Source: Carcharhinus longimanus
Taxonomy: Eukaryota
Reading direction: 5' to 3'
Assembly: GCA_030264375.1 (NCBI GenBank)
Contig: JASCQW010000081.1
Span: forward strand, 92,181,768-92,245,767
DNA length: 64,000 bases
Shown: one piece after another, positions 4,222-63,012 of the stretch
Layout of the letters: each line of letters starts with the position of its first letter
How positions within the stretch are numbered: the stretch's first letter is position 1
The notes under the pieces: model-generated
The model's database searches: none
Told to the model about the DNA's origin: nothing
Seen by the model: the letters and a program-made list of their open reading frames with translations, nothing else
Program-made: the position numbers and the translations under genes

Positions 4222-4245
4222 CAGGAGCCTTTTCTCCTGTTGATT
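4222..4245 (-). CDS. Candidate 24-nt phase 1-1 microexon (E)STGEKAP, unit A
   Basis: catttctctgcag|AATCAACAGGAGAAAAGGCTCCTG|gtaaga: strong acceptor and donor, 3n length, open frame. Confidence 0.45.
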
Positions 4246-4439
4246 CTGCAGAGAAATGCAGATAAACTTTTTTAAGTTACATTTTTAGGAGGCCTGGAAC
4301 TAACTGAATAGCACAAATTCCACCCACCGACATTGATTTGTATATAAAAAAGACTGACTGCGTTTGGTAGTCTTTCATTTATGCGACGTAATGACAGTGG
4401 ATGAATTTATTACAGTGCATTTCATCATGGCAAATTAAC

Positions 4440-4741
4440 TTTAAAGTTATCCACCAGTCACAAATCAGCTTATATTCATATTGCAACGAAGTTACTGTGA
4501 AAGATCCCGAGTCGCTCCACTTCGGCGCGTGTTCGGGTATACAGAAGCAGAATTTAGCATGGCCAATCCAACTAACCAGCACATGTTTGGAACGTGGGAA
4601 GAAACCAGAGCACCCGGAGGAAACTCACGCAGAAAAGGGGAGAAGACACAAATTCCACATAGACAGTGACCCAAGCCGGGAATTGAAGCCAGTTCTTTGG
4701 CGCTGTGAGGCAGCAGGGCTAACCACTGTGCCACCTTGCCG
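4440..4741 (-). mobile_element. HE1-like SINE
   Basis: Ends in gcgctgtgaggcagcagggctaaccactgtgccacc, the reverse complement of the tRNA-derived head. Near-identical family to 42011-42302. Confidence 0.9.
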
Positions 4742-5829
4742 GCTTTACAAATTGGCTGTCTATATTCGAAAATGTTGACTATTTAGTTATGACTGCTGAT
4801 TACCGAATTCAGAATGATATATCGGTCAGCTGAGACGACTGTTTGGCATTCATCGTCCATTACCGGGAATAACGAGGTGAGCATCAGCAAAGAGACTAGT
4901 GAGTTCACACGGAGCCCAAACCAAATTCAAGGTAATAGAATTGCCACAAGGCCACCGCCTTCCCTTAGCACCTGAACCTCGGGCTGTGATTTTAATGCAA
5001 CTAAACTGATTACACAGAATATCACAAGCGTACCTCGTAATTCCCAGCCATAAGCCGCCAGTTTTGGCCAAATACAAAAATTTCAATACATCAACCGATA
5101 CCAGAAATATTTTTTCTTCCACATACCATCAGTCTCTAGTCCTGTTGTGGCTGCAAAGAAAAGGGCGCACTATTTTCAGTTGAACTTTTGGGACGCGTGG
5201 CAATAAATCATCACCACAAATTCCACCCACCGAGCTTGACAGGTATGAAAAACTGGATCTTTCATTCGCACGACGTAACGGTAGCGGATGAATCTATCGC
5301 AGAGCATTTCAGTGTAATCACTGCAAATTAACTTTATAGCTTGGTTACCTACATTCGACAATGTTGACGATTCGGTTGTGACTGCTGGCTAGTGAATTCC
5401 GAACGATATTTTGGCCAGCCGGAATTAATGTAGCATTCGGCATTTCCTCATCCATTAGGGGAACAGCGAGTGGAGAAATAGCAAGGAGACATGTGAGCTA
5501 ACACAGCGCCCAAATAGAATTGAAATGAATAAAGTCGGAAGAGGCATTTGACAGAGGACTGGCCCAGAATCTTTTACATTTTTATATGCAATGGAAATAT
5601 GACATAACGTATGAATGTTGACGGAATTCGGTGTTTCGTGAGGTTCAATCGCAATAGAAAGCGTAATTGCCAATTGTCCGTTGAATGGCTCGGTAACTCG
5701 ATAATCCCATGAACCCTCTCAAGGTGAACAACAGGAAGCATTTTGAGTTTCATTTGAACAAAGAAACAAAAAAAATCGCAAGCTTGAGCGCTAAATGTAA
5801 GATGGGCATTAATAAATGTAAGAAATTCT

Positions 5830-6000
5830 ACATGACCTCTAGGTCATTGAGTGTCTTTCAGACAGAGATAGATAGGTTCTTGATTAATAAGGGGATCAGG
5901 GGCTATGGGGAAAAAGCAGGAGAATGGGGTTGAGAAAAATATCAGCTATGATTGAATGGCCAAGTGGCATAATCCTCCTATGTCTTATGGTCTTATGGTT
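5830..6000 (+). mobile_element. CR1 LINE 3' tail
   Basis: gagatagataggttcttgattaataaggggatcagggg...cctatgtcttatggtcttatg tail. Confidence 0.75.
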
Positions 6001-6149
6001 TTATGCCCTCTTCGTAGTGGAAATTGCAAATTTAAATCCATACTTTTGTTCAGCAGTGACAGGCAATTGTTTTCTTATTTTCACACTCCACATCGTGAGA
6101 CTGGCATGAATTTGGATTAGTTTGCAATGCTTTAATTGTTGATCTACGT

Positions 6150-7130
6150 TAGTTCGTATTGGCCTCGCCATTTCACAGAGAACAACTGATGTAATTTGTA
6201 CGCAAATAACTTTAATTCATGAATCAAAGATGCCTGCCGCATTTGAATGGACGAACCATCACCCTCATTTGTTTTGGAACTCATTGAGGCTCGGGTTTTT
6301 GCCTAAATGAACTCGCAAGAAGAATCCGTGCTATTGCAGTCTTAATAATGGTGAACTCAATACTGTCCTCTATTGGGAAACAGAAATGGAGGCGATTCAC
6401 TGGCAAAACGTGGCTGCATTACAAATCGTTTCCCATCACAAGATGCAGTATTGCAACTCAAATGCTGACCAGCGGTATGTCTGAACGTTCACCTGCTGAC
6501 AAGATCAGCTGCTGCACAAGATCAGCTGCTGCACAAAATCAGCAAGGAAACTACGTTAAGTGTAACCACCAATCTAATCAACGCATCACCGAAATTTCGT
6601 TATTGTCACTCAGTACAAATCTTAGAAGCCTCCATGAAACAGCAACGCGGGTAGTTTCATCGTCATATGCAGCAGTTCACTGCAAAACCTCGCAAACCTT
6701 CACAAAATTGATTAGGAACCTCTGCCCATACATATATATACATACATATACATTACCTATATATAATGTAAAAAAAACAATCATTCCTACTTGTACTTTC
6801 TGCGCCAGGATTTAGTTTTTTCCGTAAATCTGAAAACAAAGATATTTCAACAATTGAACAACATGAGGCAAATTGCGTCTGCTTATCTGTTTAGAACGCG
6901 CTTTTACATTGATTATACTGAATTAAAGGGCACCTATCAGTTAAACATGTTCAATTGTGCAGAAAGTTGAACTAATTGGCGTTTCTTTCATTTGCGGAAG
7001 TGTGTTTCCAGAGAGATGATCATCATTTATATCTAAATATATATGGATTTACGAATATTCAATATTATAATATTAGCTTCCATATGGTCAATGTTTTTGA
7101 GCAATTGCCCAGGCCAGTGTCAGATTGTGG
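6150..7130 (-). pseudogene. NLR unit B: 3' part of the NACHT exon (HD1, winged helix, HD2)
   Basis: Collinear remnants: HMEANIIILNI..NPY (cf. HVEENEILYTMSYNPSY), MIVF, PNQFCEG (cf. PSQFLSG), LHLT...DF.AA (cf. HLTIQEFVAA), DGKRFVMQPRFASESPP (cf. DGRFEVFLRFVAGLSSP), KLHQLFSVKWRG (cf. TLHYLFESQNRG). Confidence 0.65.
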
Positions 7131-7300
7131 TCGTATNNNNNNNNNNNNNNNNNNNNNNNNNNNNNNNNNNNNNNNNNNNNNNNNNNNNNNNNNNNNNNNN
7201 NNNNNNNNNNNNNNNNNNNNNNNNNNNNNNNNNNNNNNNNNNNNNNNNNNNNNNNNNNNNNNNNNNNNNNNNNNNNNNNNNNNNNNNNNNNNNNNNNNNN

Positions 7301-7830
7301 TGATTCAGATTTGATTTCATTGATTATAGTCACATGTATTAGCATAGAGTGAAAAGTGGTTCTGCTTACTATTCCGTTCATAGAGAAGGAAAGGAGAGAG
7401 TGCAGAATGTAGCGTCACAGTCATAACTAGAGTTTAGAGAAAGATCAACTTAATGCGAGGTAGGTCCATTCAAAGCTTTGATGGCAGCAGGTAAGAAGCT
7501 GTTCTGCAGTCGGCTGGTCCGTGACCTCAGACTTTTGTATCTTTCTCTCAACGAATGAAGGTGGAAGCGAGAATGTCCGGGGTGCGTGGTGTCCTTAATT
7601 ATGCTGCTGCTTTTCCAAGGCAGCGTGAAGTATAGATGGAGTCGATGTGTGGGAGCTGGTTTGCATGATAGACTGGACTACATTCAAGACCCTTTGTACT
7701 TTCTTGCGGTCTTGGGCAGAGCAGGTGCTTCACCAAGCTGTGATACAGCCATGTAGAACGTTTTTTTATGGTGCACCTGTAGATGTTAGTGAGAGTTGTA
7801 GCTGACACGCCAAATGTCCTTAGTGTTCTG
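7301..7830 (-). mobile_element. Rex1/Babar-clade LINE 3' end
   Basis: ORF 7599-7808 gives TLTNIYRCTIK (Rex1 LTNFYRCTIES motif). The gatttgattt..ttattatagtcacatgtatt tail is also seen at about 15600 and 51825. Confidence 0.8.
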
Positions 7831-7879
7831 TATTAAAACAGAGACACTAGAAATTGGTAGGTAGTTGGTTGAAAGTAGA

Positions 7880-9830
7880 GGCTGAGAGTGGTTATGGCAC
7901 AGATTTCCAGCCCATCGAAATCTTGTCGTTTCTTGGCAGGTGATCCAATCAGCACCATTTCTCCGCCACAACCCTCGAGAAATGCAAACGTATTTTCCTT
8001 TATTGGACTCCAATTTCATTTTGAGCTCTTCTCCCTCATAGGCAGCGACTTCCAGGTTGCACGGAAGATTTTCTGCGAGCCTCTTGCCCAGAACCACATC
8101 TTTCACCTCGCTCTTGTACGATCGGGTAAAGTAACTGTTTGATTTGTATGCCGTACTGAAACATGGCATAAAGTGTGCCCCCTCACAACCGCTGCCTTCC
8201 CAATCTCATTTTATACTAATAGAATCGCACTAGCTTTTCCAATTGAAATCATGTACCAAAAATCGCGGGTTCCAATTTTATCTGCTTTGAATCTTCCCAT
8301 CATTACCAAAATGTGGTGCCCAGAACTGCTCACGCTACATTAGTTGTGGTTTAATCAGAGCTTTATGCATATTCAGCATCATTTTATAAAGTCAGAATCC
8401 TATTTCATTTCCTAATTGCTCCATTAACATTTTCTGACAGGCTCAAAAATATATACGCACTATCCCTCACTTCTTCTTGATAAATACCAGTGTCTATCAT
8501 TCTCCAGTCTGAAAAGTTAGCCATATACTTTGACTCAATGTTTTCTCTCTTTAAGCCTTTGTTAAAATCGGATCTACATATAGTTTCCTCTTCATAGGTT
8601 TCCTGTTTTCTGACAATAATTATACGTGGAATTTAAATTAAAGCAATTCACACAACATTCATGGCATTCACTTAATCCACTGCCTCCATTATTTCATTAA
8701 GATTACTCAATTATCTCCATTACGATCTGCCTTTACACATCAGCTATCTTTAGCTGAATACTCCCCGAGACTCTGCTAAATCGTCCTGCGCTTATTGCTC
8801 ATGAAGGATTACCCATCATAATGTTAAACTTACTGGTCTGACGGTACTAGGAACCTCCGACTACTCTTTCGAGATTATTCCTATCACATTTACCGTCCTT
8901 CTATTCTCTTGGAACCCACTTCCATCATGCGAGGAAACAATTCTGCCTTCCGCCACCGCACTCCCTCTACCACTGCAGCTCCCCCGCACCACCCTTCCCC
9001 CATTACCCCCCACATTCCATGACACATACAGATCTTCTGGAGCCATGTGCGTTCCAGTTCATCGGACCAGGTGACTTGTCCACCCTCAGCATAGTCAGAA
9101 TTTCTGGTAAAAACTGCATCACACCGTCCACTACCTCACCATTTTGTTACCCTTCCAACGCGCATTTACACAGTTAACGCTCATACAAAGCCTTTAAATG
9201 TTCTAGCCCCGGCCTGCATCTCTGAATATTTAGCATATTGGTCCTAATTGATCCACCCCTCTCCTTCCGAACTGCTGAGATTTACATGCTTGTTTAAGAG
9301 CCTCGGATTGCTTTTATGCTGCATGTCTACTTGAATATGGCTGAACGAATCCACGTGACAGATTATCATGCGCCTCTTCCTCATTCATCAGTTTTCAAAA
9401 TCTTCTCCGTAATCCAAAAACCATTGATACTGTTACCTATTGCCCTTGTCATATTGTACATCGTCTGTTCATGAAACACATCTTACTCAAATGTCTCTCA
9501 CTATTACCATATCTGACAGTGTTCGATTCCATTTCACCCTGGCTGGATCCGCATTCACACCACCGAGGTTTCCCATCCGCCTGATCGAAATTTGACTTCA
9601 GATTGTTAATTATTCTACTTCGATTTAAAAAATATTTTATGGAGCTATGACCAGACGTCCCCAAGTATTGTCCCGTGGCCATTTGATCCAATCGCCCACT
9701 TAATTCCATAGCATCAGATCCAGCAAAACATTCAACTAATTTGACCGAAAGCATACTGGTAAAGAAAGTTCTCTAGAACACATTTCTGCAATACCCCCTT
9801 TCCTTATGCGCTCATCTGATACATTTTTCT
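7880..9830 (-). mobile_element. Old, degenerate CR1 LINE (ORF2 remnants) inserted in the unit B NACHT exon
   Basis: tgtggtgcccagaactg (QFWAP, reversed); catcataatgttaaacttactggtctg (RPVSLT, reversed); endonuclease-like LDQMATGQYLGTSGHSSI in ORF 9449-9754. Confidence 0.6.
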
Positions 9831-9959
9831 CCTATATTTGTGTGCCTTTAGAACCCACAGGATCAGCACTCTAGTTGCTCTTCAACAGCTCTCTGATGCC
9901 CATGTGTGTCTGTCGGCAGGGCGAATGGACAAAAATTGCCATTTGTCAATTTATTGCCT

Positions 9960-10325
9960 TATTTGGCATGGTTTTGATCTTACAGGAGGCATAAACCTTC
10001 CCAGCTCTCTCGCCACATGGTGAAACCATTCACATTTCTTTCAGCGGCTTGCCGGCTACTGCGATGTTAAAGTACTTACATTCGCCACACTACTGGAGAC
10101 ACGGGTAGCAGCAGATCACAGCCATTGGCCTCCGGCCACCTCTTGGAGTGTTTTCCTTTTCTGCGAATGTGGCATTACAGTTCCGGAGAGAGATTATTTT
10201 CTGGATCCAGACGTGCTCCTTTTCAAAATGGAGACGAACGCGTATTGCCTCATCCAACAGCAGAAAACATCCAATTCTGCCGGTTGATTTGTCGGCCAGC
10301 AATATAAAGGAATATTCAAGAAATC
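9960..10325 (-). pseudogene. NLR unit B: 5' part of the NACHT exon (FISNA-like region and Walker A remnant)
   Basis: Acceptor ttctgtgtttcctctag at 10326-10327. KEHVWIQKIISLRNCNATFAEKE (cf. KETLRAQTETLRVNTILIKEK), then IAVAGKPLKEM*MVSPCGERAGKVY at about 9991-10065 (cf. AAVAGVPGIGKTTMVQKIVYDWATGKIY). Confidence 0.7.
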
Positions 10326-10646
10326 CTAGAGGAAACACAGAAGAAATTCTTGAACCAAGTCATTAAAAGAATCTGGAAATTACTCGCACAGGGATGATTC
10401 TTCCGGGCTCAGAATCATCATCAGACTAAAATGAATTTAAAAGAGTCAAGCTTTTTATGAACGCAGTTGGCGCTAATGATACGCTGCCCACCGCCTAACA
10501 CATTTGGTGTGTTTTCTGCCCCTCTTGCTTCCAGCGCAGAAAGAAGTCCATATTATTTCGCCTCAGATGTCAGAAACCAACCTAACACAATTCAGGAAAA
10601 GAAAAGTTTGCCTGCTCATGTGATTGTAGATTTGTGAATATTTTAC

Positions 10647-10670
10647 CTGCCAGTTCCTTTATCCTTTGAA
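10647..10670 (-). CDS. Candidate 24-nt phase 1-1 microexon (V)QRIKELA, unit B
   Basis: ttcttgcatcaacag|TTCAAAGGATAAAGGAACTGGCAG|gtaaaatat; paralogous to 62989-63012. Confidence 0.45.
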
Positions 10671-10989
10671 CTGTTGATGCAAGAAAACATAGAAATTGGA
10701 AAGCAACAGATAATTCCTTTGCCTCCATGAATTCGTTTTCCGTCCGGCATGTACGAGATTTCATCCAGTGTGGAATCGCATATGATTATTACCTCTTTAG
10801 CTGTGCCAAATGATGAGTTAAGCGATATACGTTTACTTGGGCGAACGAGAGAGTAAAGTCGTATCCAATTAGCCGTTGCGTTTTCAAACAGGCTTCGATC
10901 GAATGTATACCTTTATTTGATTACCAATTCGGCTTTGAATAAGGACGGGAGAGATGCCTGCCACTCCTACCTATTAAATTAAGAGTTAC

Positions 10990-11400
10990 AGAGGTCATAG
11001 AGTCATAGAGATTTACAGCATAGAAACAGGCCTTTCGGCACAACTTGTCCATGCCACCCTTTTTTATTTTAAACCCCTAAACTAATCCTAGTTACCTGCA
11101 TTTGGCCCATATGCGTCTATACCCATCTTACCCATGCAACTATCTAAATGCTTTTTAAAAGACAAAATTGTACCAGTCTCTACTACTACTTATGGCAGCT
11201 TGTGCNNNNNNNNNNNNNNNNNNNNNNNNNNNNNNNNNNNNNNNNNNNNNNNNNNNNNNNNNNNNNNNNNNNNNNNNNNNNNNNNNNNNNNNNNNNNNNN
11301 NNNNNCTGATCCACTTCAGATCAGCCATGATCTTGTTGAATGGCGGGGCAGGCTTGAAGAGCTAGATGGCCTACTCCTGCTCTTATTTCTTATGTTCTTA
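10990..11400. mobile_element. Two CR1 3' tails in opposite orientation around a gap
   Basis: gtcatagagtcatagagatttacagcat... (minus tail, 10990-11205) and ...ggcctactcctgctcttatttcttatgttctta (plus tail, 11306-11400). Confidence 0.75.
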
Positions 11401-11402
11401 TA

Positions 11403-12140
11403 ATACAACCAGGAAGAATGCTTTCTATGGTGCATCTGTAAAAGTTGGTGAGAGTAGTAGCAGACATGCCAAATTTCCTTGGCCTCCTGGGAACGTAAAG
11501 GCGTTGGTGGGCTTTCTTAACTGTAGTGTCGGCGTGGAGGAACCAGGACAAGTCACTTTCCGTAGGTTGACTTTTGAGAAGGCTGCTCTGACATCTGCGA
11601 TGGTAAGCTCAGATAGCGGTTTGTCCGAGGCTTCTGGGGTGGAGGGCTTGCTCTTGCTGACCTCTTGCTCAAAATGGATGTAGAATGCATTGAGCTCATC
11701 AGGGAGAGATGCATTGGTGCTGGCGATTTTACATGCCTTCATCTTGTAGCATGTCTTGCAGACATTGCCATAGTTGGTGGGAGTCCATGTGCCTAGCCTG
11801 GGACTCTAGCTTGGTCCGGTACTGTCTTTTGGCATCTTTGATGTATCTTCATGGATCATATTTGGATTCTTGTATAGATCAGGGTCTGACTTGAATGCCT
11901 CAGACCTGGACTTCAGCAAGCAGTCGATATCCCTGTTCATCCATGGTTTCCGTTTGGGAAACACATGGATTTGCTTCTTTGGCACACAGTCTTCTACACA
12001 CTTACTAATGAAGTCAGTTCAGGTTGGCTGCTGAGTTTTTAAAATATTGACCAGTCTACTGACTCGAAGCAGTCCTGTAGGAGATCGTCCGATTCCTCAG
12101 ACTAACATTGCACAACTTTCTTTAAGGGATTCTTCCAGAT
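11403..12140 (-). mobile_element. Rex1/Babar LINE ORF fragment (internally deleted)
   Basis: NASLPDELNAFYIHFEQ...IADVRAAFSKVNLRK in ORF 11425-11742; FPNGNHG/DCFESVDW-like remnants upstream. Confidence 0.8.
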
Positions 12141-12750
12141 CCCACAGTGGAACCCAACTTGGTAGATCCTATCTTGTATTTTTTGGTTAGATACGTGGGA
12201 GGTGGCTACTAAGTAGAGTCACAGGACTCTGAACAAAAGAATAAACATTTACTTGAAAAGATTAACTTGATACACAACTCCTTTGCCCCACTTGACCTTC
12301 ACAGACGTTTACAGATTCCTAAGGATGACACAAGTCACAGAATCTGTCTTGCATGCTCATGTCCTCAGTCAGTACACAGTCCATGTAAACCAATGGGCAA
12401 ACCATGATCAGACACTCCACTTTCTGAAACCAAGTGGCAGATGTCACACAAAACAACTTCCACGGATTTCTCAGCAATTTACCCCAGGCACTTGTGATCA
12501 CCTGGTTTCTCTGGAACTCTGTCTTCCACACAAGGATTTCCTATCTCCACTCTTAAAGTATGCATCTTGGAATCTTCTCTGAAACAATATTTCTTTTGTA
12601 TGTTTTCACCAAGAACCTGCCTCCGGATTTCAACCTCTGCTCTGAGGATTCCTTTGCCCTGGGCTTTGCCTTCCACTCGGACACTGAGCTACCTTATTCC
12701 TAGCACACACATGATATAAATAATTTAATACCATATATATTTCTTAACAT
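12140..12750 (-). mobile_element. Probable solo-LTR-like remnant
   Basis: The minus strand starts TGTTAAG. It is non-coding, with aaatgtttattct and ...gttccactgtgggatctg motifs resembling shark Gypsy-type LTR ends (recalled, unverified). Confidence 0.4.
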
Positions 12751-13914
12751 TAGTAGTGGCGAGGTACTTGCTGTATATTTTGGAGAAATGGAAGTTGTGG
12801 GATCTCCTGAATTTTTTCCAGAAGGCTTTTTTGCCACAATATGAGACTGATAGTCTATTTGTTAGAAGGACTAGTTGCAGTTTGATATTTGCTGTCATGG
12901 CCGGATTAAATAAAATGCTAAAATAATTATATGTTAGCTAGCTTGGTGTGAGAAGAATTAAACATATAATGACCACAATATTCTCCCACGGATTAACAGA
13001 ATGCTTCAGTTGATCTGCATTTTGTTTGCATATAAGCTGCACTTTCAACTTTTGCAGTTAATTTAGAAGGCCGTTTTTGTTCTACATCTTGTTGGTTCCA
13101 TAGCTGAAGCACTTGAATCAATGTGCAATCTCCAGTTTCTCAGTTTTTAGACAGCTGTAGAGGAAGCAGGATTGGATGTTTAATAAGAAGTAGGAAAGGG
13201 GTCAAAGTCTCAATTGGGCATAATTTTTATTTCAACTTATTAATTTTTTGTTTGATGGCTGGGTGACCCAGTGCTCCACCAGCTCCCACATGAAATGCCG
13301 CTTCAGGTAAAAAAAAAAATACTGAACCTTGTACCTAAAACTGCCAGGGAAGCTAATTAAGAGCAAAGTTTTGAAGTTGAGAATCACCATTAAATCTTGA
13401 ATGAGTAATTTGCAGAATCATCATCATTCGCAACCTATCCTGAGGATGATTCTTCCTTGCAGATGGTTTGGTTTAAGTGAAGTGCCAGTTTTTGGCTGTT
13501 GGTTTATGGATGACCTGTGAGCCCAACCATAGCCTTGTAGGGATTCCCGTCAACTGTCAGAGGTGGTGGCAGATTGTCGGCGCTCTTTCTATCTCTCTCA
13601 CCAATTGCAGTGAGAACACATTGTTGGTATCAAGCAGCAAATCAAACCCATTGTGAATGAGATAGTTTCATTTATTGCCCTTTTGCTGATGGCTGAAGAG
13701 ATTACTCTGTGAGAGACACGCTGTGTCACAAATGTGTGTTTAGTGTTGACACCTGTTGCCAATGGTTGCACATGCCAGCACAATAGGTACTGATAACATT
13801 TCCCTCTGTCATTGGCTACTATCTCCCAGGAACAAAACTCAATATTCAGGGCCTTTTATGTCATGCTTGTAAACTAGAAGCTGAGCTTTAGGCTTCCTAC
13901 TAGTCTTCTCTACC

Positions 13915-14041
13915 ATGATGTGGAGGTGCTGACGTTGGACTGGGGTAAGCACAGTAAGAAATCTCACAACATCAGGTTAAAGTCCAACAGGTTAATTTGG
14001 CAGCACGAGCTTTCGGAGTGCTGCTCTTTCATCAGGCTGCC
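13915..14041 (-). mobile_element. Penelope-like pseudo-LTR fragment with a minimal hammerhead motif
   Basis: gatgtggagg..g.cgttggactggggtaagcacagtaagaa.tctcacaac..caggttaaagtccaacag, also at 14548 and 45880. The minus strand contains CTGATGA-N14-GAAAGCTC. Confidence 0.65.
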
Positions 14042-14547
14042 AGCCATGCCATACAGAAAGTCCTTGGCCACACATAGTTTTTCCAACTTGCTAAATGCCC
14101 AAGCTAGCAAAGTCACCTCTGCTTGGTGACATGCCATTAGAGGTCGGAAATTTGACTTGAGAGGACTGCTGCATTCGTGCTTTTGATTTTTCACGAACGC
14201 TCGAAATGAAGTGGCAGCGATGAAGATGAAAGATGCTCAGAAGAAGTGTCAGATGGACTTGAAATATTAAGTCAGTTTCTCTCTTCACAAATGCTACCAG
14301 ACCTGCTGAGTTTATATTTCAGATTTCCAGAAACTGCAGGATTTTGCTTTTATAATGTATAAGTTGTTGAACTTTCTTTCTTGATAGCTGTAAGTTGTCC
14401 TAGTTTCACAGTCACAGAGCAAGGTGCTGAGAACATGCCTTATAAAATGACATTTTGGTCGTAGAATCAGTCTTGATGTTATTCCATGCACATTTCATAA
14501 GTTAGACAAAATAAGCAGCTGCTTTCCCAATGTGTGCATTAAGTTCT

Positions 14548-26750: not shown

Positions 26751-26759
26751 AAATGCAGC

Positions 26760-52749: not shown

Positions 52750-52960
52750 GGAAATGTGTGCAGAAGGCACACCATCTCCATCGCCGTCCCATAAGCACGT
52801 TACAGCATTAGCTGCCGTTTCTTGGTAAGTGCGTATTGACTCACTGGAATTCTTTGGGGCATTTAAGCAACTTCTCGTGAATATTTTTTGCAGGTTTGGC
52901 TGCTTGCGCGAGATAAGCCTCTAATGATGTAGCACGATGAATTGATTGGATCAGAGGTAA
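52750..52960 (-). pseudogene. NLR unit H: HD2 end remnant
   Basis: YLAQAAKPAKNI (cf. GLAQAALGSVETL), preceded by SCYII (cf. LHYLF). Confidence 0.4.
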
Positions 52961-53919
52961 ATGTCAACTGACTATGACGGTAGCTAGGCAGGTAGCAACT
53001 CAATAGGGTGGCAGTTTGTTTCAACTGGGGAGAGATGGAGTTTCAGGAATTAAGATGATGGAGTCGGATGGGGCTAGACTCGTGAGTAAATTAAGATTTG
53101 TGCGTAAATTAAGTGTCGGTCAGATGATGGCGTGATGGCGTCTAGTCAGGTTGATCCTGGGGCAGTTTGGGTGTCAGAAGGTGGGCGATTTCTCAGGCAA
53201 GTAATCGAGAGGGGGCAGTCTGTGGGTATCCATTCTCAGGGAGCGGGGCGATCGGTTCTTGTTGCCAGGGAGAGGAGTTATGTCAATATCGTCGTGGGGA
53301 TAACTAGTCAGATTTGAAAGGGAATCGTAGGCTCAGTTTTATAGTTATCCAAGAGTTAATATAGGATTTCACTTTCGATTACATCATGCGCAATTGTTTA
53401 TTCAAGCAGGATTGAACCATCCGACACATTATTATGCATGTTTCCATCGGGTACCATGGAACAAACGAATTGGCCATTAAAATTTAAAAGTTCTAAAGAG
53501 TCAGTGCAGAAAGCAATGGAGTCTGTGCACTTGCACTTCTGAGAGGTCCAGAAGTGCAAGTGTCAGGCTGTTCTTCACAGATTTGGAGACAGGCAGATCT
53601 GAATCAATGATCATGTCCATAATGTGTTATTGCATTGAGAAATCGGCATGCATTTAACACGTTTATGCTTATGAACGGCCCCCCCCAAAAAAAAGCACGT
53701 TGAAAACGATCTACCCCTGTGCATTACAATTATATTCGATAAAGTGTCGCATATCAGACTCGTGAGTAAATTAAGTGGAGCTCATGAATCCAAAGAGGTC
53801 AGAGGCAATAGTGATTCAATGCCGATTGGTTGATAGTCCCAGGGAGTCGCAGTGAATCTTTGTTTGGACATGTTCGAAATAGAGATTTTTTTTATAGTTC
53901 TAGAAACTGTGCTCTTCCA

Positions 53920-54230
53920 GGGATGGCATGATGTACAATGACCAGAATTGCTGCCTCACAACTTCAAGGACTTGCCTCAATTCCGGACTTGGGTACCAAT
54001 CTGTGTGGAGTTTGCGCACTCTCTGCATGTCTGCACCGGTTTCCTCCCAAATTCCAAAGAATTGCAGGTTGAGTGGGTTGTTCGTGCTAAATTGGTCGTT
54101 CGTGTCCCAAGATATGTAGGTTGGAAGGGATTAGAAGGGTAGTGCGGGGGAGAGGGCCTTGGTAAGATAGTCTTCCAAACTCGATGGGCCGAATGGTCTG
54201 TTATGCATTGTATTGATACTATGATTCGAT
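53920..54230 (+). mobile_element. Degenerate HE1-like SINE
   Basis: tgctgcctcaca..tctgtgtggagtttgc..ggtttcctccca..actcgatgggccgaatgg. Confidence 0.8.
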
Positions 54231-54299
54231 GATTATATTATTAATAAGATGTAAACAGCGTAAGTTCCAAATTTGTGCAGAGAATGTAAGTTTTAAGTA

Positions 54300-55210
54300 T
54301 CGTGAAATAAGTGAAGAAAGTGCGGGAAGTCACAATTAAATGGAAATTTTGGCGGAGTGAGCGGAGAAGTAAAAGGTTACATTTAATGACAAGAAATGCG
54401 AAGTGATTTATTTTGGTAGGAACTTCAGAAATACGTTCTTCAATTCCAATGTTAGTGCAGGGGAAATGCAATCTCTGTTGCTCACACCATTCATGACGGC
54501 AGGGCAAGTTGAGGGAGCGGGTAATAAAGCCTTAGGCGTTAATGGCTTTAAAATACCGGCACAGAAAACAAAAGAATGAAAGATAGCTTTATTATGTATC
54601 GTATTGTATTGGATATTGGATTGGCCTTAACCGGAATATTCATCCAATTATGGAAACAGTTTAAAAATGGCATGATGTCGTTAGAGAGAGAGAGAGAGAG
54701 CAAATGCAGTTCACCAGAATGGTTATAGGAACACGTCTCTTTTATTAGATTAATAGGTTTCAAAGTAGGATTACTATCCTTGGCAAATGAATGACTGAGC
54801 GAACACTTCAGAGGAGGATTCAACATCATTATGCATTTTGACAAAATCGGTAAGGAACTCTTTCCATTGTTGGAGAGGCGGGGATAGGGAGGGGTGTGTT
54901 CAGTTGGCAGAAAGAACCATAGTTCACTGATTTAAGTTAATGAATCAATGATGACACGTAAGAAAGATAAATAGATAGGTGGTGTTTGCATCTGCAATCT
55001 ACTGCTGGAGATTGTAATGAAGGCAAATTTATTAGATAAAGAGAAAAATCGAATTGGGTCAGGATCTGAAAGAAAAACAACGTCGTGTAAGTTTAGGCAG
55101 GATGCCGCTGGGAGTTGGGGTGGTGCTTTGTTGGATTGCTTTCTCCGTGCGCTAGCACGAGTAGGACTCTTCCAACTGCCTCACCCTGTTTCAAAAATAC
55201 TTTGATTCTG
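54300..55210 (+). mobile_element. Ancient CR1 ORF2 3' remnant
   Basis: aaatgcgaagtgatttattttggtagg (KCEVIYFGR) and later degenerate 3' motifs. Confidence 0.6.
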
Positions 55211-55434
55211 TGTCGAAAATCTTAGACCTGGCATACAATATTAATTGAACAGAAATTGTTGAAATTTTGGAAGTGACATCAGGTTTATTCCTTTAACTGG
55301 AAAACTCCTCTTAGACGGTTCCAATATCCAGATGAGTTTAAATTTGCTCAATTGAGATCAATATATGTTCCTTACATCACTATATAAGTCAGTACAGACC
55401 AAAGGTGGATAATTAGAATTGTGGAGGATAAAAG

Positions 55435-56760
55435 TTATTGGATTGTATGGTTAAACAGCATATAACACCCCAGTGATCGATTCCTGCTCCAATCTCCCTT
55501 TCGGTATTTCATTGTTCCTTGCAGTTTTTTGACGAAAATTCCAGGCAATTTCTGAGTCCGCTTTCTGGTGACCAATGTATCTACATTAGTCAGATTTGCA
55601 CGAGGCCTCCGAGGCTGATTGACTCTTTGGCCAGTTGAAAATCGTTTACATATTTCGCATGCAATTACAGTAGTACGCATAATACACAGTTATTCCTGGG
55701 TAAGATGCTCTTTCTGTGAGTTGGTGCAGACGCCGTGGACCGAATTGCGGCCTTCTGTACTGTCGGGCACCTATGGCTATATGATTCTACAATGTGAAAC
55801 TATTGAACTTCTGAAACGGGTGTACTCAGCGGAACACTTGGCTAAAGTAACAAATCCTTGCTCCACAAATTTCAATTCTATCCCGAAGGATATTTTATCT
55901 TTTTTAAATATGAAAATCCACACAACGTCTACATTTGTTCATATTACACGCCATCCTGGAACTAATGCTTGCCACAAATCAACCTTCTCTTTGTTAACAG
56001 CAACTTATCCATTCTGCTTGCTATTCTTACCTCAGATCAGTACATATTGCCGTGACATTTCTCAACTCCAGGATATCGAGCTCGAATGGTCGATATTAAT
56101 TTCTTGAGAATCAGGGCACTACGATCATGCCTCCAGGACACGTCTCTCTAGTTATGTTCCGCTGCAATGAAAACGTAACTTAGTTGCTTCTAACTTTGAC
56201 TACTAAATTAATGGCGAAGTCCAACAAAAAACGATGTTGCTCTGCAACTGCTCGTGCATTTACTTAAGCTGTTCCAGAACGACAAAACATATACGAATGT
56301 AAACTCGACATGTTACCCGATTCACGAGCTTTGACTAGTTCTGAAAAGAGAAATCAATTTTATTTTGAGTTTTCCATTCTCATTTTTAAAATTAACGTTT
56401 CATGCTGAAACGGCTTTATTAAAACGGCTTTGGTAAAACAGACATTTCAACTTGCATATCGATTTTCTATGATTGTTCAACGGCAGAATGATTCTTTTCA
56501 AGGAGCGAGTTGGAATAACGTAATTTGTGTGATTTTCACGCCGTTGGTAAAGGCAGCATTTGTTACTCATCTCCAACTGCACTTGAGACAATGGTGGTGG
56601 GCGCTCTGAAAGAACGGTTGCACTCGATCTCGTTTAGCGTATCTTCCGTGCTGGTGGAAAGGAAATCCTCGAATTTTGATCCATCCACAGTAATAGAACA
56701 ACGGCATGGAAAGATAACAGAAATGCAGACTATTAAATGTATCTGCCAAATGCACTTCCT
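55435..56760 (-). pseudogene. NLR unit H: decayed FISNA-NACHT exon
   Basis: GRYAK (cf. DRYAE); LFYQSRF (cf. LFQSSF); LQSNIVFCWTSPLI (cf. VQKIVYDWATGKI); LISTIRARYP (cf. LRELILDQYP); QKLPGIFVK...GCYMLFNHTIQ (cf. QFLSGFLME...VVYTFPHLTIQ). Confidence 0.68.
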
Positions 56761-56874
56761 ATTATACTCATCACAGACTAGCAGCCAAAATTGATTTTTG
56801 TTGGGGACACAAATCGGGCATTAGAAGTTGCGTTTCTATCAGGGGTTTCACTGCGAACCTGCATTTGAAGTACC

Positions 56875-57440
56875 AGGGTTCTACAAATATGTGAAGAGTA
56901 AAAGGATGAGAAGAGAAGGAATAGGACCTATAAAAGGTGAAGGGGGAAAAGTCTGTGTGGAACCGGAAGAAATGACAGGGGTGCTTAATGAGTACTTTGC
57001 CTCGGTATTCACGGTGGAAAGTGATCTGGGAGGTTGTACTACAGGTTTGCGGCAGANNNNNNNNNNNNNNNNNNNNNNNNNNNNNNNNNNNNNNNNNNNN
57101 NNNNNNNNNNNNNNNNNNNNNNNNNNNNNNNNNNNNNNNNNNNNNNNNNNNNNNNNTGGTCGCTACGAGAGGACACAGGTTTAAGGTGCTGGGAAGCAAG
57201 TACAGAAGAGATGTTAGGGGTAAGTTTTTCACTTAGAGGGTGGTAAGTGAGTGGAATCGGCTGACGTCGGTGGTGGTAGAGGCGAACTCGCTGGGGTATT
57301 TTAGAAGGCTTCTGGATGAGTATATGGGATCTAATGGGATTGGAAGTTACAGATAGTTCTAGGGCTTGGCAGGTATAGATGTGATCGGCACAACTTGTGG
57401 GCCGAAGGACCTGTTTGTGCTGTAGTGTTCTATGTTATTA
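56875..57440 (+). mobile_element. CR1 LINE pieces around a gap
   Basis: FYKYVKSKR...EMTGVLNEYFASVFT; TRGHRFKV...GKFFT; tail. Confidence 0.9.
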
Positions 57441-58064
57441 AGTGGACAAAAGCAGTGCAAGGGCAGATGGACATTAAGGGAAACAAAAAACATAAGTGAT
57501 CTTATTCACTTTTTTACCTCTCTCCTTTTCGTTCAATAGTTTTTCTGCCAAACAAAAAAGATAAAAGCAATCGTCATAGAGTCGGAATGCAGCAGATGAC
57601 TTCGTGAGCAACTGATTGCTACAAAAAGTGAGAATAGCTCTATGAACCTGTTTCAAAATTCAAGAGTTGTGTGCCTACGTTCATATTTAAATTAACGTAC
57701 ATTTGATATCCAGGGAAATTTTTAATCGCAGAATATATTATAGTTCTTCGTTCGTATAATTCACATGGAGTTTTCATCTCGGAGTTTTACACTGACAATG
57801 AACTTTCTATAATTTCTTACTTAGTATACGCATGATAGTTTATCTAGCACAAACAAAATCATTTAAAAATAGTTGTGTGGTCAAATGTAAAGTGGAAGAG
57901 CAGATTAAATCCTTTGACACAGCTAAAAAACAATTTGAGATCATGGGATCGTTTTTCAAATTCTAATCACATGCTGCGAAATTGGAAAGTTCATATAACC
58001 AGCATTCAACACAAACCACAAGGCCTTATTTTCAAGTGACAAGTAGGAAGACGAATGGTGGCTT

Positions 58065-58350
58065 CATGCTAATTCCCGGAAGTCCTGATGATTGCTTTGA
58101 AAACATTCACCTATTTGAGATTCTCACTGCGCCGTTATGTGTTCAACATAATTCGATTTTGATCAACACATGTTCATTGTCATGGAGTGAAGTAATTTGC
58201 CATGTAATAGTGACATTAAATAGGTTATACTCAATTTAGCCATACCCAGTTTTTGAAGTTTGCTCTGTAGATCTAAAAGTAAAAAAAATGATTGGACTGC
58301 ACGTTCATTATAAGAGCTATAAGAAGTACAATGAAGAGTCTCAGATGATT
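58065..58350 (-). pseudogene. NLR unit H: possible CARD-like exon remnant
   Basis: YNERAVQSF (cf. YRDRLEQAI); HNGAVRISNR*MFSKQSSGLPGI (cf. KGSRARRVMWESFVKMRHGVPKL). Confidence 0.35.
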
Positions 58351-58624
58351 GACCCACCAGTAAGAAAATGATGTCAACGATAAAACAGTAATAATCACTT
58401 CAATAAAAGGCAAAATATATGTTAATTGAAAGGAATGTCTTTGAAGATCGCAGCTATATGAAAGACGGTCGTATATATTTTATGGACTCCCTGTGAAATC
58501 ACATGCACAAGAATGCTATTTACAGGTTACAACGTTCCTACATTTCTATGTAAGTATTTTCAGTACTGACTTTGCGGTGTTCTTTTCATGAAACCACGTC
58601 AGAAAAATTTAGTTTCTATACACT

Positions 58625-58760
58625 TTAATCGAGTTAAAATTTCTGTCAATGGTGTTTTGTGTGCAGTAACAATGAATTCCCAAAACCTAGCATTTTCATT
58701 GTGCATTTTTTACCTTAATACCTGCGCTGAACAAATTTTGTTCAACAGACGATAGGGAAA
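58625..58760 (-). pseudogene. NLR unit H: CARD-like exon remnant
   Basis: NENARFWEFIVTAHKTPLTEILTRL (cf. GSRARRVMWESFVKMRHGVPKLDKILKEI). Confidence 0.6.
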
Positions 58761-59097
58761 ATCATCATCATACTTATTGACACGGCAAATTCTACGTGCT
58801 TATTCGTTTGTTCCGATAATAGCGAACTTTGCCCTTAGTTCATAACGTTACTCTTTCTTATCTTAGATGAGTGTAATATGTGAATGGCATCCTTTCAACA
58901 CACACATAAAAATACACACACGTACCACAGAAATAAAGTTTCTGGTCGATGGAATAGATTTTTCATATATTGCAAAAGGAATAACATTGTATTGCACATT
59001 TTTCAATATTTAGCGTTCTCAATGGAACATAAGAACATAAGAACTAGGAGCAGGATAATGCCATTTGGCCCCTCGAGCGTGCACAGCATGTGTCAAG

Positions 59098-60088
59098 AAA
59101 ATTCAAGTAGATCACACCAGGTCCATGATTCTCGATTGCATGTATTTCATCCACGAATATTTAGCACCAAAACTGCCCTAATTTATGTAAATTCTCCAGG
59201 CCACAACAACACCAATTTTGTATTCGACACAATGCACATTGACGTGAGTGCACGATTTCGAATTTTTCATTTCTTCCTAACAAGTATACTTTACAACCTT
59301 GCTTCACCCCACCAATTCGTCTGTTTGTCCTCTCACCAGATTTTGTATCTAGCTAGAATGTAAATATAATACAACGTAAATTATTCAGCTACTCGTTGCA
59401 TAGTCTGCTCATTGACATTTACCCTGCAAAGAACTAGCTATCTAGGCGATGAGTTATTGCCATCCACGAATGTTGCTCAGTTAAACTAGTTTGGCTGAAT
59501 GCCCTCCTTTAACACTGAAAATTCTATTAATTTCTACAAGCAGGAATTACTGCAGGATTCATTCTTCAGATTATCAATTCGATTCCAGGAGCTTCAAGAG
59601 ATTCAGAGACTCTTTAGAACAGAGATAGAGTGATGATACAGGAGAGAGGGTGTATAATATCGGGACTATTGGGGTCACTTCTGGAGAAGTTGGTCCCTCT
59701 ACAGTTTGGACTAGTAACATCTAAACAGAGCTCTGACTGTATGTCTGGCGAGGAGCTAGACTAATGCTATTGAAAAAAACTTGGCGAAGATTTAGGAATA
59801 TGAAATGGTGATAGAGTAGAACACCCAGATGTGGAGAAAGCTGGGAGGGACTGGAATAAGTATAGTAACAAATAGTAAAGTTTTGGTAGAACACGTTCGG
59901 AAGAAATGCAACAAATTCGAAATTTAAGTTATCATGCACTCATGTCACTGTGCATAGTGTTGAATACAAAATTGGTGTTGTTGTGGCCTGGAAAATTGTC
60001 TCAAACAAGGGCAGTTTTCGTGCTAAATATCCATGGATGCAAAACATGGAATCGAAGATAATGGACTTGGTTTGAATTACATGAATGT
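59098..60088. repeat. About 200-bp inverted repeats (59098-59298 and 59880-60088) flanking an approximately 580-bp spacer
   Basis: ccaggccacaacaacaccaattttgtattc matches the reverse complement gaatacaaaattggtgttgttgtggcctgg exactly, and alignment extends on both sides. Confidence 0.85.
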
Positions 60089-60369
60089 TGAAAGAAAAGA
60101 ATAATAAAATTTATAAAGCAGACTTGTGACTGGAGTGAGAGCCTTTCGAATAAAAATAGACTGTAGGAATATCGATGGATGCGAAGTTTATCAATTGTCA
60201 GGGGAAAAAGAGGAATGCTGAACAGTTGTTTATTGGACTATTATTAAACCTTTCCTTGCGTCTTAGAGTTCGAAATTAAAACCCTTGTTATTGTTCCATA
60301 TTACTGTCGAAGGCCTTGGTATGCAGGCTACACTGAATGTTCGGAGATGTCACGAGTAGTGGACGAAAT

Positions 60370-62430
60370 CATAGAACTAAAGAGTCTTAGGATCACACAG
60401 TGCAGTAAAGGTCCTTCGTCCCAACGAGTTTGCATCAACAAGACAGAAATATCTGAAATTCTCCCTATTCCCGTTTATCTGCTCTTGGCTAATTAACTTG
60501 AATGTTATAACGTGCCAAGTGCTCATCCAGATACTTTCTAAAGGATTGAGGCAACCGTCCCAGGTAGCGCATGTCAGTCTGCGCAAGCGTCTTCCTCATA
60601 AATGTCCTGTCACTCATCTTGAACACATGTCTCTTTGTGACAGACCCTTCAACTAAGGGAAACAGTTGTTACCTTCCCACACTTTATATGCTCCTCATAA
60701 TCTTGCACATCTTAATCAGATCGCCCCTCAGTTTTCTGTGCTCCAGCGAAAACAAACTATTATCGGACAACAAATTTTATGAAATTGAGCACACAAAATG
60801 GAAGCAAGCTAAAGTTATCCTCAGAGCCTTCCACTAAATTCACAAAGTAACAGACACTTATCAGTAGGCAAAAGCATGCTTTTAGAACGCAAATGAGGGC
60901 TAGCACGTAAGGGAAATTGGACAGGATGGCACCTACAGGAACTTAATCAAAAAACATATCCCCACCCCATCAAAATCAGGACTTCTAAACCCGTCAAACC
61001 ATCCATGGAGACACCTAAAATTAACACAGTTAAGGAAGTGTCCCTGGCCCCTCAAAACTCTTGAGACCAATAACACACCTATGGNNNNNNNNNNNNNNNN
61101 NNNNNNNNNNNNNNNNNNNNNNNNNNNNNNNNNNNNNNNNNNNNNNNNNNNNNNNNNNNNNNNNNNNNNNNNNNNNNNNNNNNNTCAGGTATAACTGTAG
61201 CCCCTTGTGGGGGAGTCTTTAGAGCACTTTCGGGACAGTCCGATTGTATGTCCTGACTGTGTTTCTCCGTTGACGTAAAAAGAAAATAAAGCTGTGCCGT
61301 TATTGAACTTCACCCTGAGTCCGTAGTGGTCGTTTCGCACACTCGCGCTAACAAAACCAAGCCTATCCAAGCTCTGTTCGGAAATCAAATGTTCCTTCCA
61401 AGGCAGCAACCTGGCGAATATCGTCTGCACCCCCTTCAGTGCAATCACATTCTTCCTGTAATGTGGCGACCAGAATTGCACACAGTACTCTAGTTGTGGC
61501 CTCACCAAAGTTCTCTACAACTCCAAGACGACTTCGGTGCTTCTGTAATATATTCCTCGATCGACAAAGGCACGTGTCCCTTATGCGTTGGAAGGACAGT
61601 GAATTGTGAGAACGGCTGCATTACCTTTCAGAAGGAGAACTGATCGATAAAATGGGCAGATAAGCGGCAGGTAACAGTAATTAAGAGGCGTGCAAGGACA
61701 ATAGTACAAGGAATTATATAATTAAGAGTACAATACAAAAGAGGGAACATGAGCTGAGATCGTAGGATCATATCTGCATGAATTATGCAAGTGGCAGAGT
61801 AGGTTGAGAGAGAGAGAAATCAAAAAGCATCCGGAACCCTGTTATTTTTTTTTAAACAGAGGCATAGAGTGCAAACGCAGGGATGTTGCAAAAAACCCGT
61901 GTAAAATGCAATGCACTAAATGGAGGATTGTTTCTAGTTTTTAGAAATCATGTGAAGGCAATTAATTGAGCGCAATAAGTATTTACAACAATGGTTGCAG
62001 GGCCGGCGATCATCAGTTACGTGCGTAGATTGAAGCGGGAGTGGGGCTGTTCGCTATCGAGAAGAGAAGAGTGGGAGGATATTTGGTAGAGGCATTCAAA
62101 TTCCTGAGAGGGTTAAGTAATATATCGTTAAGGTGTCGATGATCAGAGGCAAATGATTAAAGTGACTTGTAATAGAAGCAATGGTATCACGAGAAACGTT
62201 ATCTGTACACTGAATGGAGCTGATATAAAATGCTTTATCTGGGAGATTTGCGGAAACAAATTTGAACCTTTGCTTTCAAGCGCAAGTTAGATCACAATCA
62301 GAATGCTGAAAACAGTGAAATATGTGGAAAGAACGTTGGCAATCACACCGGAGAATTTTTCTTGCAGAAAGCTGTCGCAGCTTTGACGTGTCAAATGCCT
62401 CAGTCAATGCTATGAGTATTTGATTCGATT
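60370..62430. mobile_element. Cluster of CR1 fragments (minus 60370-60760 and 61350-61590; degenerate plus 61600-62430)
   Basis: VRPQLEYCVQFWSPHYRK in ORF 61185-61508; tails and 3' ORF2 motifs. Confidence 0.75.
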
Positions 62431-62559
62431 TGAGGCTTGCTTTAAAATAACGTTTGATTCAGGACCTCTTTCGAAGGCAAAATATTAGATGATGTCAGGC
62501 TAGGACTGACGTCGTAAACTCTGCTTAAATGCCAGACTAGATTTTGCAATTTGCCATAA

Positions 62560-62850
62560 AGTTAATCCTGTTGAAATAGGCTCGTAGTGCTTACAAGATT
62601 TTCCAGGCATAATTACTGCCGAAGTGTTACTGTTACTGTTAGTGCGACCTGCAACTCCACATTAGCTACAGCATGAGCTGTTTTATTTGCCTGTCACGTG
62701 GCAATTTTATTTTGTAGCATCACTGACTCTTTTTGGTAGGCATTAAGACAACTGTACTTTGAAGGCGTTTCACTTTGCTCAACATTTCCGCATGTAAATA
62801 CTGTGAAATACGGTCATACGCGGATGTTACAGAGATGGAATGCAACATGC
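62560..62850 (-). pseudogene. NLR unit H: most 5' CARD-like exon remnant
   Basis: TSAYDRISQYLHAEMLSKVKRLQSTVVLMPTKKSQ* (cf. TKFYRDRLKQAIEEKVERLGWMLTKEGH). Confidence 0.45.
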
Positions 62851-62988
62851 TTTCTGCAGCAAACATTTCCTTTCACGTAATGGATTTCACGAGATTGTCA
62901 GAATTCTCTTCTTGTCTTTTACCTCAATGACCTGTAACATTAAACAAGAAGGTTTCACGTAAAATGATTATCAGTCAAGATATTTTAC

Positions 62989-63012
62989 CTGTCACTTGTT
63001 TCATCTTCTCCA
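62989..63012 (-). CDS. Candidate 24-nt phase 1-1 microexon (V)EKMKQVT, unit H
   Basis: ttcaatttatcag|TGGAGAAGATGAAACAAGTGACAG|gtaaaatat; paralog of 10647-10670. Confidence 0.45.

Follow-up and report, generated by a model that had tools for sequence, protein, structure and literature searches.

According to the available portions of the papers on chicken BG genes (PMC5938342, PMC4046983), these genes consist of signal, Ig-V and transmembrane exons followed by 13-36 exons of 21 (18-24) nt that encode a heptad-only tail. The same portions describe what BG, or zipper protein, shares with the shark gene analyzed here: a long coiled coil made from numerous tiny exons whose first codon is split, together with tandem copies, an alternatively spliced tail and an adjacent TRIM region (PMC5938342, PMC4046983). 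The shark gene differs in having at least 108 exons, mostly of 27, 36 or 24 nt, and a B30.2 end, and in that no Ig or transmembrane exon was found. Mammalian BTN1A1, BTN2A and BTN3A also carry heptads and then a B30.2 domain, as the accessible part of the source states (PMC4046983). These proteins, however, have two Ig domains, a transmembrane segment and a small number of heptads. TRIM-B30.2 proteins (TRIM21/39/58, "zinc-binding protein A33") share with the shark family a coiled coil, a C-terminal B30.2 domain and the genomic cluster; unlike in TRIM-B30.2, RING and B-box were not found in the shark family members scanned and the coil is built from microexons. The shark coil is also about 10 times longer than a TRIM coil. 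The guinea pig enterophilins combine many heptad repeats with B30.2 and have no membrane anchor. For enterophilin-1, the available part of the report (PMC13749957) describes sorting nexin 1 as a binding partner and a reduction of surface EGFR. The enterophilins are likely an independent butyrophilin derivative. Long chordate proteins ending in SPRY were also met in the ESM Atlas, in clusters of 1277 aa and 1579 aa (feature scores 0.91 and 0.88); taken as leads, they suggest that the rod-plus-B30.2 layout reaches beyond cartilaginous fishes. Our search for literature on microexon or coiled-coil B30.2 genes of cartilaginous fishes, outside of which most subscription journals fell, returned no description of this family.

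The window, a stretch of 64,000 nucleotides from Carcharhinus longimanus, falls over its whole length (1..64000, minus strand) in the middle of a single gene that spans about 408 kb. Its parts are a head exon of 132 nt, no fewer than 108 phase-1 microexons, for the most part 27, 36 or 24 nt long, and a B30.2/SPRY exon at the end. Both end exons lie outside the window on the minus strand. The head exon (C81:92399484-92399615) has an ATG 14 nt past its acceptor and encodes the conserved peptide PVDEY(I/M)NIGT, and the terminal exon (C81:91991293-91991804) has a phase-1 acceptor and an intact frame. We are confident that the microexons with support are conserved and coding and lie in mid-gene, and that the product is likely a coiled-coil rod, soluble and at least about 1,300 residues long, which in-frame exon skipping would tune in length. 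From the genomic sequence, we infer that splicing joins the head, the ladder of microexons and the B30.2 exon in a single mRNA of this shark; a search of sequencing runs listed no RNA run holding the sequence, and the runs X1, X2 and X4 behave as genomic contigs, with no joints over 46400-48700, and are silent on expression.

The ladder exons are collinear with RefSeq proteins of Scyliorhinus, at 63-66% identity. On XP_038671249.1 of S. canicula, a chain of 66 exons scored 1614 with 403 of 636 residues identical, against 121 on the plus strand and 328 with a reversed query; on XP_072329363.1 of S. torazame, 56 exons scored 1479 with 372 of 564 residues identical (controls 93 and 317, respectively). 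The chains were made by splicing candidate exons, and a few low-scoring rows in each are misplacements. Ladder and SPRY lie within the single S. canicula model, the S. torazame gene is divided between two, and none of the relatives' models is full-length. Relatives were found in sharks, rays and chimaera, under the RefSeq labels A33-like, TRIM39/58/69-like, butyrophilin-like, golgin-like and trichohyalin-like. Isoforms from ray, catshark and chimaera differ by in-frame blocks of 6-12 residues, these models and isoforms being predictions.

Within the window, 22 microexons on the minus strand are supported, encoding 196 aa together. The first-pass annotation had listed 15 stretches as minus-strand AG..GT microexons, 3n in length and without a stop in phase 1, and all 15 have these properties. 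As exons, nine are backed by orthologs or by the tandem paralog (4222, 10647, 17715, 32862, 41772, 46866, 48518, 56317 and 62989) and six are not (17555, 26423, 40384, 43446, 47503 and 48121). A splice site is missing in the tandem paralog for 17555, 40384, 43446 and 48121, the paralog copy of 47503, a possible poison exon, contains a stop, and 26423 has no paralog counterpart. None of the six is used in the Scyliorhinus ortholog chains, and three of them have negative acceptor scores in the splice matrix. The other thirteen supported exons had been overlooked. The count of both strands that had been proposed as a null agreed with the ladder: among 9-45 nt candidates scoring at least 7 in a splice matrix of approximate frequencies, 11 of 11 were 3n on the minus strand versus 3 of 6 on the plus strand (binomial p 6e-6), and 10 of 11 versus 1 of 6 were open in phase 1.

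All supported exons of the window are on the minus strand and are given here in the order of transcription. The phase-1 exon of 27 nt at 63655..63681 forms a paralog pair and is absent from the S. torazame model. The 24-nt exon at 62989..63012 is paired with the paralog at an exon identity of 0.83, both splice sites being kept, and is possibly a cassette exon, since the S. torazame model lacks it. Then come, each with a paralog counterpart, exons at 58246..58272 (27 nt; XP_072329363.1 550-558, 6/9 identical), 57518..57544 (27 nt; 559-567, 7/9) and 56317..56340 (24 nt; 568-575, 5/8). One further exon, which both ortholog and paralog lead us to expect between 48.6 and 56.3 kb, was not found; its place according to paralog anchors is close to the N gap 51954-52053. 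The ladder goes on, again with paralog support, at 48518..48544 (27 nt; XP_038671249.1 16-24, 5/9), 46866..46892 (27 nt; 25-33, 4/9), 43266..43301 (36 nt; 34-45, 8/12; paralog 0.86), 41772..41798 (27 nt; XP_072329363.1 615-623, 5/9), 41620..41646 (27 nt; 624-632, 9/9), 39805..39831 (27 nt; XP_038671249.1 64-72, 5/9) and 39669..39695 (27 nt; 73-81, 6/9). The 27-nt exon at 32862..32888 has a paralog with both splice sites and a weak ortholog match (4/9). Paralog alignment supports the 36-nt exon at 31725..31760, which has a GC donor instead of GT and whose peptide resembles, by inspection, XP_072329363.1 660-671, as well as the 27-nt exon at 26549..26575; the unsupported stretch 26423 sits just downstream of the latter. 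The 15-nt exon at 22560..22574 forms a paralog pair and fits in position XP_038671249.1 112-116. It is followed by exons at 17715..17732 (18 nt; 117-122, 5/6), 17457..17483 (27 nt; 123-131, 9/9), 10647..10670 (24 nt; 132-139, 6/8) and 6791..6829 (39 nt; 140-152, 6/13), all four with paralog counterparts. The listed stretch 17555 is intronic, with exon 17457 as its supported neighbor. Exon 6791 marks the end of a helix and the start of a putative hinge, and is coil in the structure model. Two putative hinge exons of 24 nt complete the series: 5127..5150, which forms a paralog pair, and 4222..4245, which aligns to the same paralog exon and has no clear placement on the ortholog proteins. The two are local duplicates, the segments 4050-4446 and 4951-5339 matching at 67%.

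We then compared the ladder with its tandem paralog in a phase-agnostic way, and 64 conserved pairs were obtained on the minus strand versus 7 on the plus strand. Fifty-nine of the 64 pairs are 3n, and in phase 1 both copies are open in 57 of these, compared with 9 in phase 0 and 27 in phase 2; in a shuffled control the mean was 23 and the maximum 35. Over 63 exon pairs, all open in both copies by choice of input, dN/dS was 0.52 (bootstrap 0.38-0.69), with 160145, 153651, 128093 and 47503 left out as mis-paired, mis-bounded or stop-bearing. For the 21 window pairs only, the value was 0.69 (0.37-1.27), which is not confidently below 1. None of the 108 exons ends in T and, therefore, no skipping pattern creates a stop; none occurs at the 5778 ordered junction pairs. 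Ortholog collinearity, phase-1 conservation and dN/dS in the paralog comparison, and a heptad period of 3.4-3.5 in three orthologs essentially bear out the earlier suggestion of microexons under selection that are spliced into one charged, helical, microexon-built peptide.

Heptad repeats on split-codon microexons, a butyrophilin/BG hallmark, are present in the ladder, in units of 27/36 nt and not of 21 nt. The 36-nt exons encode a hydrophobic residue at position 2 in 80%, at 5 in 90% and at 9 in 77% of cases. The structure model of XP_038671249.1 consists of long helices with breaks and a beta domain (mean pLDDT 61), its B30.2 part being of low confidence. SPRY was detected in the B30.2 exon (E 8.4e-7 and 6.5e-10), and its 39.6 bits against a Pfam cut-off of 26.3 place it in the B30.2/SPRY superfamily; PRY was not detected with Pfam. 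By analogy, the shark gene may work like the heptad-microexon tail of chicken BG and butyrophilins, at a larger scale. In-frame skipping of microexons would tune the length of the rod, which may dimerize as proposed for chicken BG tails. Exons rich in Gly, Pro and Thr, e.g. 6791, 5127 and 4222, could act as hinges, the conserved DEY(I/M)N motif of the head is a putative tyrosine-phosphorylation site, and the end of the rod would present B30.2 domains to a putative partner. Such a protein would serve as a cytosolic scaffold or tether, and not as an E3 ligase or a receptor.

The ladder had originally been placed in an NLR pseudogene array, its microexons being possible linker exons preserved by chance or reused. 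That 6 of the 15 listed exons are unsupported means that the detection bias admitted at the time was present; however, we find this origin hardly credible, as NACHT is missing from window and contig and the exons align, in the same order, with a protein that is not an NLR. None of 46 NACHT matches fell on the contig, three intact NACHT exons used as tblastn queries gave no match in the window at E<=10, and a NACHT profile stayed at noise level (best E 0.87 versus 2.2 in the reversed window). The destroyed large exons reported beside the ladder are absent, those stretches being introns with LINE and SINE pieces, and the microexons are part of a gene that has a head exon and a B30.2 exon of its own. 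TACC3 was rejected as the host gene: only one TACC3 exon lies here, the rest being on C1, and TACC3 proteins of relatives are without the ladder. A stalk of C-type lectin or TNF type was dropped after the B30.2 end exon emerged. A membrane receptor of butyrophilin/BG type, with the ladder as cytoplasmic tail and its upstream Ig and transmembrane exons missed, would suit the setting among TRIM and butyrophilin B30.2 genes, the phase-1-compatible head with its DEYxN motif, and the combination of split-codon heptad microexons and B30.2, which is a BTN/BG design in the part of the source available (PMC5938342). The closest solved structure by sequence is also the B30.2 domain of BTN3A1 (E 2e-14), with TRIM21 narrowly behind. 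We nevertheless hold a receptor to be quite improbable: no BTN IgC match was found over C81 90.23-99.72 Mb (57/57 candidates scored), tblastn gave no Ig match from +200 to +1184 kb, and no Ig domain was present in the family members scanned. The V-set genome search scored 150 of 928 candidates, and above head C 28 kb were read; the strong candidates include no convincing hydrophobic phase-1 exon for a signal peptide or transmembrane segment, with gaps and an open head leaving room for one. The family members scanned had no RING or B-box either, and no B-box was found nearby, in C81 91.82-94.76 Mb (150/277 candidates scored). In a midpoint-rooted tree of 32 rows, 6 of them Ig-bearing, the members from sharks, rays and chimaera group in a B30.2 clade of their own, separated from the sampled BTNs by a 100/100 branch.

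A recently disabled copy with undecayed exons would account for the GC donor at 31725, the one exon not found, the window-only dN/dS interval that includes 1 and a short contig of run X1 with a one-base gap that overlaps exon 46866. Such decay is very improbable, since the main X1 contig over this exon shows no difference, each of the 7 gap sites listed for organism B over 46400-48700 falls in an intron, the B30.2 frame is intact at 64% identity to catshark, and all but two of the paired 3n exons are open in both copies. The extent of the gene is a separate matter. Two further paralogous ladders lie upstream, so that three tandem ladders, C, A and B, span 1.35 Mb, and they could be one transcription unit with about 250-300 microexons, internal heads and a single B30.2 exon. 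All three heads are 132 nt long, phase 1-1 and open over the 14 nt before the ATG, no B30.2 exon was detected for ladders A and C, and the ladders share one strand with no other large same-strand coding exon found between them. Protein conservation of the three heads and of S. torazame, however, starts at Met, the DNA upstream of heads B and A matches over about 16 kb/6 kb as in a whole-gene duplication, terminal exons could be concealed in the N gaps of 3.9-6.9 kb that follow A and C, and no relative's model joins two ladders; a single unit is therefore unlikely. It is likewise a long shot that this undescribed family, with its stop-proof, freely skippable microexons, makes from such a unit a coiled coil that is several thousand residues long, combinatorially variable in length and equipped with a single recognition domain.

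The gene of about 408 kb, read as the source of a coiled-coil rod with a B30.2 end, belongs to a family that occurs in sharks, rays and chimaera and is fragmented and mislabeled by annotation pipelines. A protein encoded almost entirely by over 100 microexons, whose skipping always keeps the frame and never creates a stop, offers an extreme test case both of microexon splicing and of the exon-level tuning of coiled-coil length. Finally, cartilaginous fishes are seen to carry, within a TRIM/butyrophilin cluster, the heptad-microexon design of BG and butyrophilins joined to B30.2 with no Ig head detected, which bears on the origin of that design.

The 15 microexons proposed in the first-pass annotation were all recovered at their positions as minus-strand AG..GT stretches of 3n length, open in phase 1. 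Counting 3n against non-3n candidates on both strands as a null revealed an excess of 3n candidates specific to the minus strand. In a splice-site scan using approximate matrices, candidates of 9-45 nt scoring at least 7 were 3n in 11 of 11 cases on the minus strand (10 open in phase 1) and in 3 of 6 on the plus strand (one open); 5 of the 15 listed stretches reached this score, and the acceptor score was negative in 3.

These microexons had been read either as linker exons of a decayed NLR array, left by chance among destroyed large exons, or as exons still under selection. The NLR origin did not hold: none of the 46 NACHT matches in the genome falls on contig C81, three intact NACHT exons gave no tblastn match in the window at E<=10, and the best E of a NACHT profile was 0.87 in the window and 2.2 in its reversed sequence. 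Nor were the destroyed large exons found, the window containing no long host ORF and its recognisable long frames being LINE reverse-transcriptase pieces; its self-matches are mostly dispersed repeats, and repeat identity was judged by eye. Selection is instead supported by paralogs and orthologs. The window (C81:92181768-92245767) belongs to ladder B, a row of minus-strand phase-1 microexons with two tandem paralogs: ladder A starts at +583.6 kb (extended window coordinates, that is contig position minus 92181767) and is collinear with B down to +257 kb, at about 68% in aligned blocks, and ladder C runs from +1156.4 kb to about +639 kb. When candidates of 6-130 nt were paired between A and B, phase not being assumed, 64 pairs were found on the minus strand and 7 on the plus strand. 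Fifty-nine of the 64 were 3n, of which 57 were open in both copies in phase 1, 9 in phase 0 and 27 in phase 2 (shuffled expectation: mean 23, maximum 35). The dN/dS was 0.52 (0.38-0.69) for 63 A-B exon pairs and 0.69 (0.37-1.27) for the 21 window pairs; therefore constraint is moderate, and is not established by the window alone. Identity between A and B was 0.72 in exons versus 0.635 in aligned flanks, with one exon mis-set in this comparison.

The terminal B30.2 exon retrieved Scyliorhinus canicula XP_038671249.1 (P0121), which matches it at 64% in the domain and whose 945 aa comprise a long charged stretch and SPRY. A search with the coil of P0121 in turn led to Narcine bancroftii proteins and to a pair of S. 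torazame models lying side by side. Candidate phase-1 exons were chained collinearly to the relatives' proteins, with the plus strand and the reversed query as respective controls; some low-scoring rows are misplacements. The chain to P0121 comprised 66 exons (score 1614, controls 121 and 328; identity 403/636), that to S. torazame XP_072329363.1 (P0285) 56 exons (1479, 93 and 317; 372/564), that to P0282 46 exons (1219, 93 and 282) and that to the ray protein P0289 39 exons (637, 107 and 308).

Among the listed stretches, 10647, 17715, 41772, 46866, 48518 and 56317 have both ortholog and paralog support. For 32862 the paralog agrees and the ortholog match is weak, 62989 is supported by the paralog alone, the S. 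torazame model being without it, and 4222 is a local duplicate of 5127 with paralog support. No support was found for 17555, 40384, 43446 and 48121, which lack one splice site in paralog A, for 47503, which meets a stop there, or for 26423, whose counterpart was not found in A. Thirteen supported exons had been overlooked, which brings the total for the window to 22 (196 aa); one further exon expected within it was not found. The supported microexons are almost certainly coding exons. At the donor of the minus-strand exon 31725-31760 (36 nt, well conserved), GC stands in place of the GT present in the paralog. The final T of the 9-nt candidate at 47503-47511 (minus) would yield TAA with a next exon starting in AA, and its counterpart in A keeps AG and GTAAG around an in-frame TAA; it may be a chance match or a conserved poison microexon. 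At 46879, run X1 has a short extra contig that overlaps exon 46866 and carries a one-base gap; with a likeness of 80%, it probably matches there by chance. The main X1 contig is identical to the window at this exon.

In the flanks, phase-1 candidates of 27 and 36 nt remain in excess on the minus strand between about +197 and -183 kb. The exon path starts with a 132-nt head exon at +217.8 kb and ends with an intact exon (phase-1 acceptor at -189963) encoding a B30.2/SPRY domain (profile E 8.4e-7 and 6.5e-10). A census keeping ortholog scores of at least 22, paralog pairs and 4222 gave 108 microexons and 1045 aa (55 of 27 nt, 30 of 36 and 16 of 24), with a median intron of 2.3 kb; it is likely an undercount, yet may include a few misplaced rows. 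None of these exons ends in T, and no junction stop arises in 5778 ordered exon pairs. In the three head exons the ATG lies 14 nt past a phase-1 acceptor and the frame before it is open, thus leaving room for coding exons upstream or for read-through between ladders, either of which may occur. No B30.2 exon was found for A or C, each of which is followed by an assembly gap (3.9-6.9 kb), and the genome search revealed no second close copy. In ladder C, at least six similar 27/30-nt candidates (DRDMMDIRS-like; C81:92.99-93.05 Mb, L123-L129, minus) suggest recent exon expansion.

Between 85 and 102 Mb on C81, SPRY matches number in the dozens, B-boxes are numerous and eight IgC exons are of the butyrophilin type; the region is therefore a TRIM/butyrophilin cluster, which by analogy with other vertebrates would be MHC-linked. 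A shorter microexon ladder at C81:94.27-94.33 Mb (L101-L108) also has a SPRY of its own, which in the domain reaches 66% to P0147, a 'TRIM39-like' protein of S. canicula, and on contig C119 (6.3-11.3 Mb) five SPRY exons, possibly further members, outrank local TRIMs against both family queries. Downstream of the B30.2 exon, at a distance of 86 kb, a single frame (L051:3363-4031, minus) encodes a RING protein that has a hydrophobic stretch at its C-terminus. One ladder intron harbours a lone intact TACC3 central exon (C81:92030813-92031982, L015/L016, minus; 87% to Mustelus asterias TACC3-like), on the same gap-bounded contig as three ladder exons. The remaining TACC3 exons lie at C1:23.66-23.69 Mb, and there a gap of 3752 N occupies the place expected for the lone exon, which is likely a misplacement or a collapsed duplicate. 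A ladder A intron holds an orphan intact 364-codon cadherin cytoplasmic-tail frame (PF01049; L078:6019-7110, plus), which we take to be desmoglein-like; no identical copy was found elsewhere, and it is possibly an assembly effect of the same kind.

The charged, helical, microexon-built peptide suggested earlier agrees with predicted long helices and, in three orthologs, with a hydrophobic periodicity peak of 3.4-3.5 and with E, K, R, D and Q making up about half of residues. The 36-nt exons are hydrophobic at residues 2, 5 and 9 in 80, 90 and 77%, and the 27-nt exons at residue 4 in 60%, with Lys/Arg at residue 7 in 60%; a 36+27 pair would therefore cover three heptads. In the P0121 structure model (pLDDT 61, pTM 0.28), Gly/Pro-rich segments interrupt long helices, and one of these segments corresponds to window exons 6791-4222; a beta domain is modelled with low confidence. 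The RefSeq isoforms predicted for Narcine, S. canicula and Callorhinchus are set apart by in-frame blocks of 6, 8, 9, 11 and 12 residues, in some cases by longer blocks.

In a midpoint-rooted B30.2 tree of a sparse sample (32 rows), seven coil-linked rows and four unlabelled ones (S. canicula, Callorhinchus, Leucoraja and one further record) share one side of a 100/100 branch, with 9 TRIM and 6 Ig-bearing rows on the other. Neither Ig, RING nor B-box was found in the family members scanned, nor as exons of this gene in the surrounding region, where 57 of 57 IgC candidates (C81 90.23-99.72 Mb) and 150 of 277 B-box candidates (91.82-94.76 Mb) were scored; the V-set search of the genome scored 150 of 928 candidates. 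The literature searched, with thin coverage of subscription journals, yielded no description of such a family. Altogether, it is likely that the supported microexons are live, conserved coding exons of an undescribed coil-B30.2 family. According to PMC5938342 and PMC4046983, the coiled-coil tail of chicken BG is encoded by 13-36 exons of 21 nt whose first codon is split, and in mammalian BTNs a few heptads precede B30.2. Compared with these, the shark gene shares the heptad-microexon coiled-coil design, but has about three times the exon number, other unit sizes and a B30.2 domain, with no Ig or membrane part detected. Enterophilin is an analogue of the coil-B30.2 layout. Its role with SNX1/EGFR is described in PMC13749957. 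Long chordate proteins bearing SPRY form clusters in the ESM Atlas, which suggest that the rod-plus-B30.2 layout may exist in other chordates.
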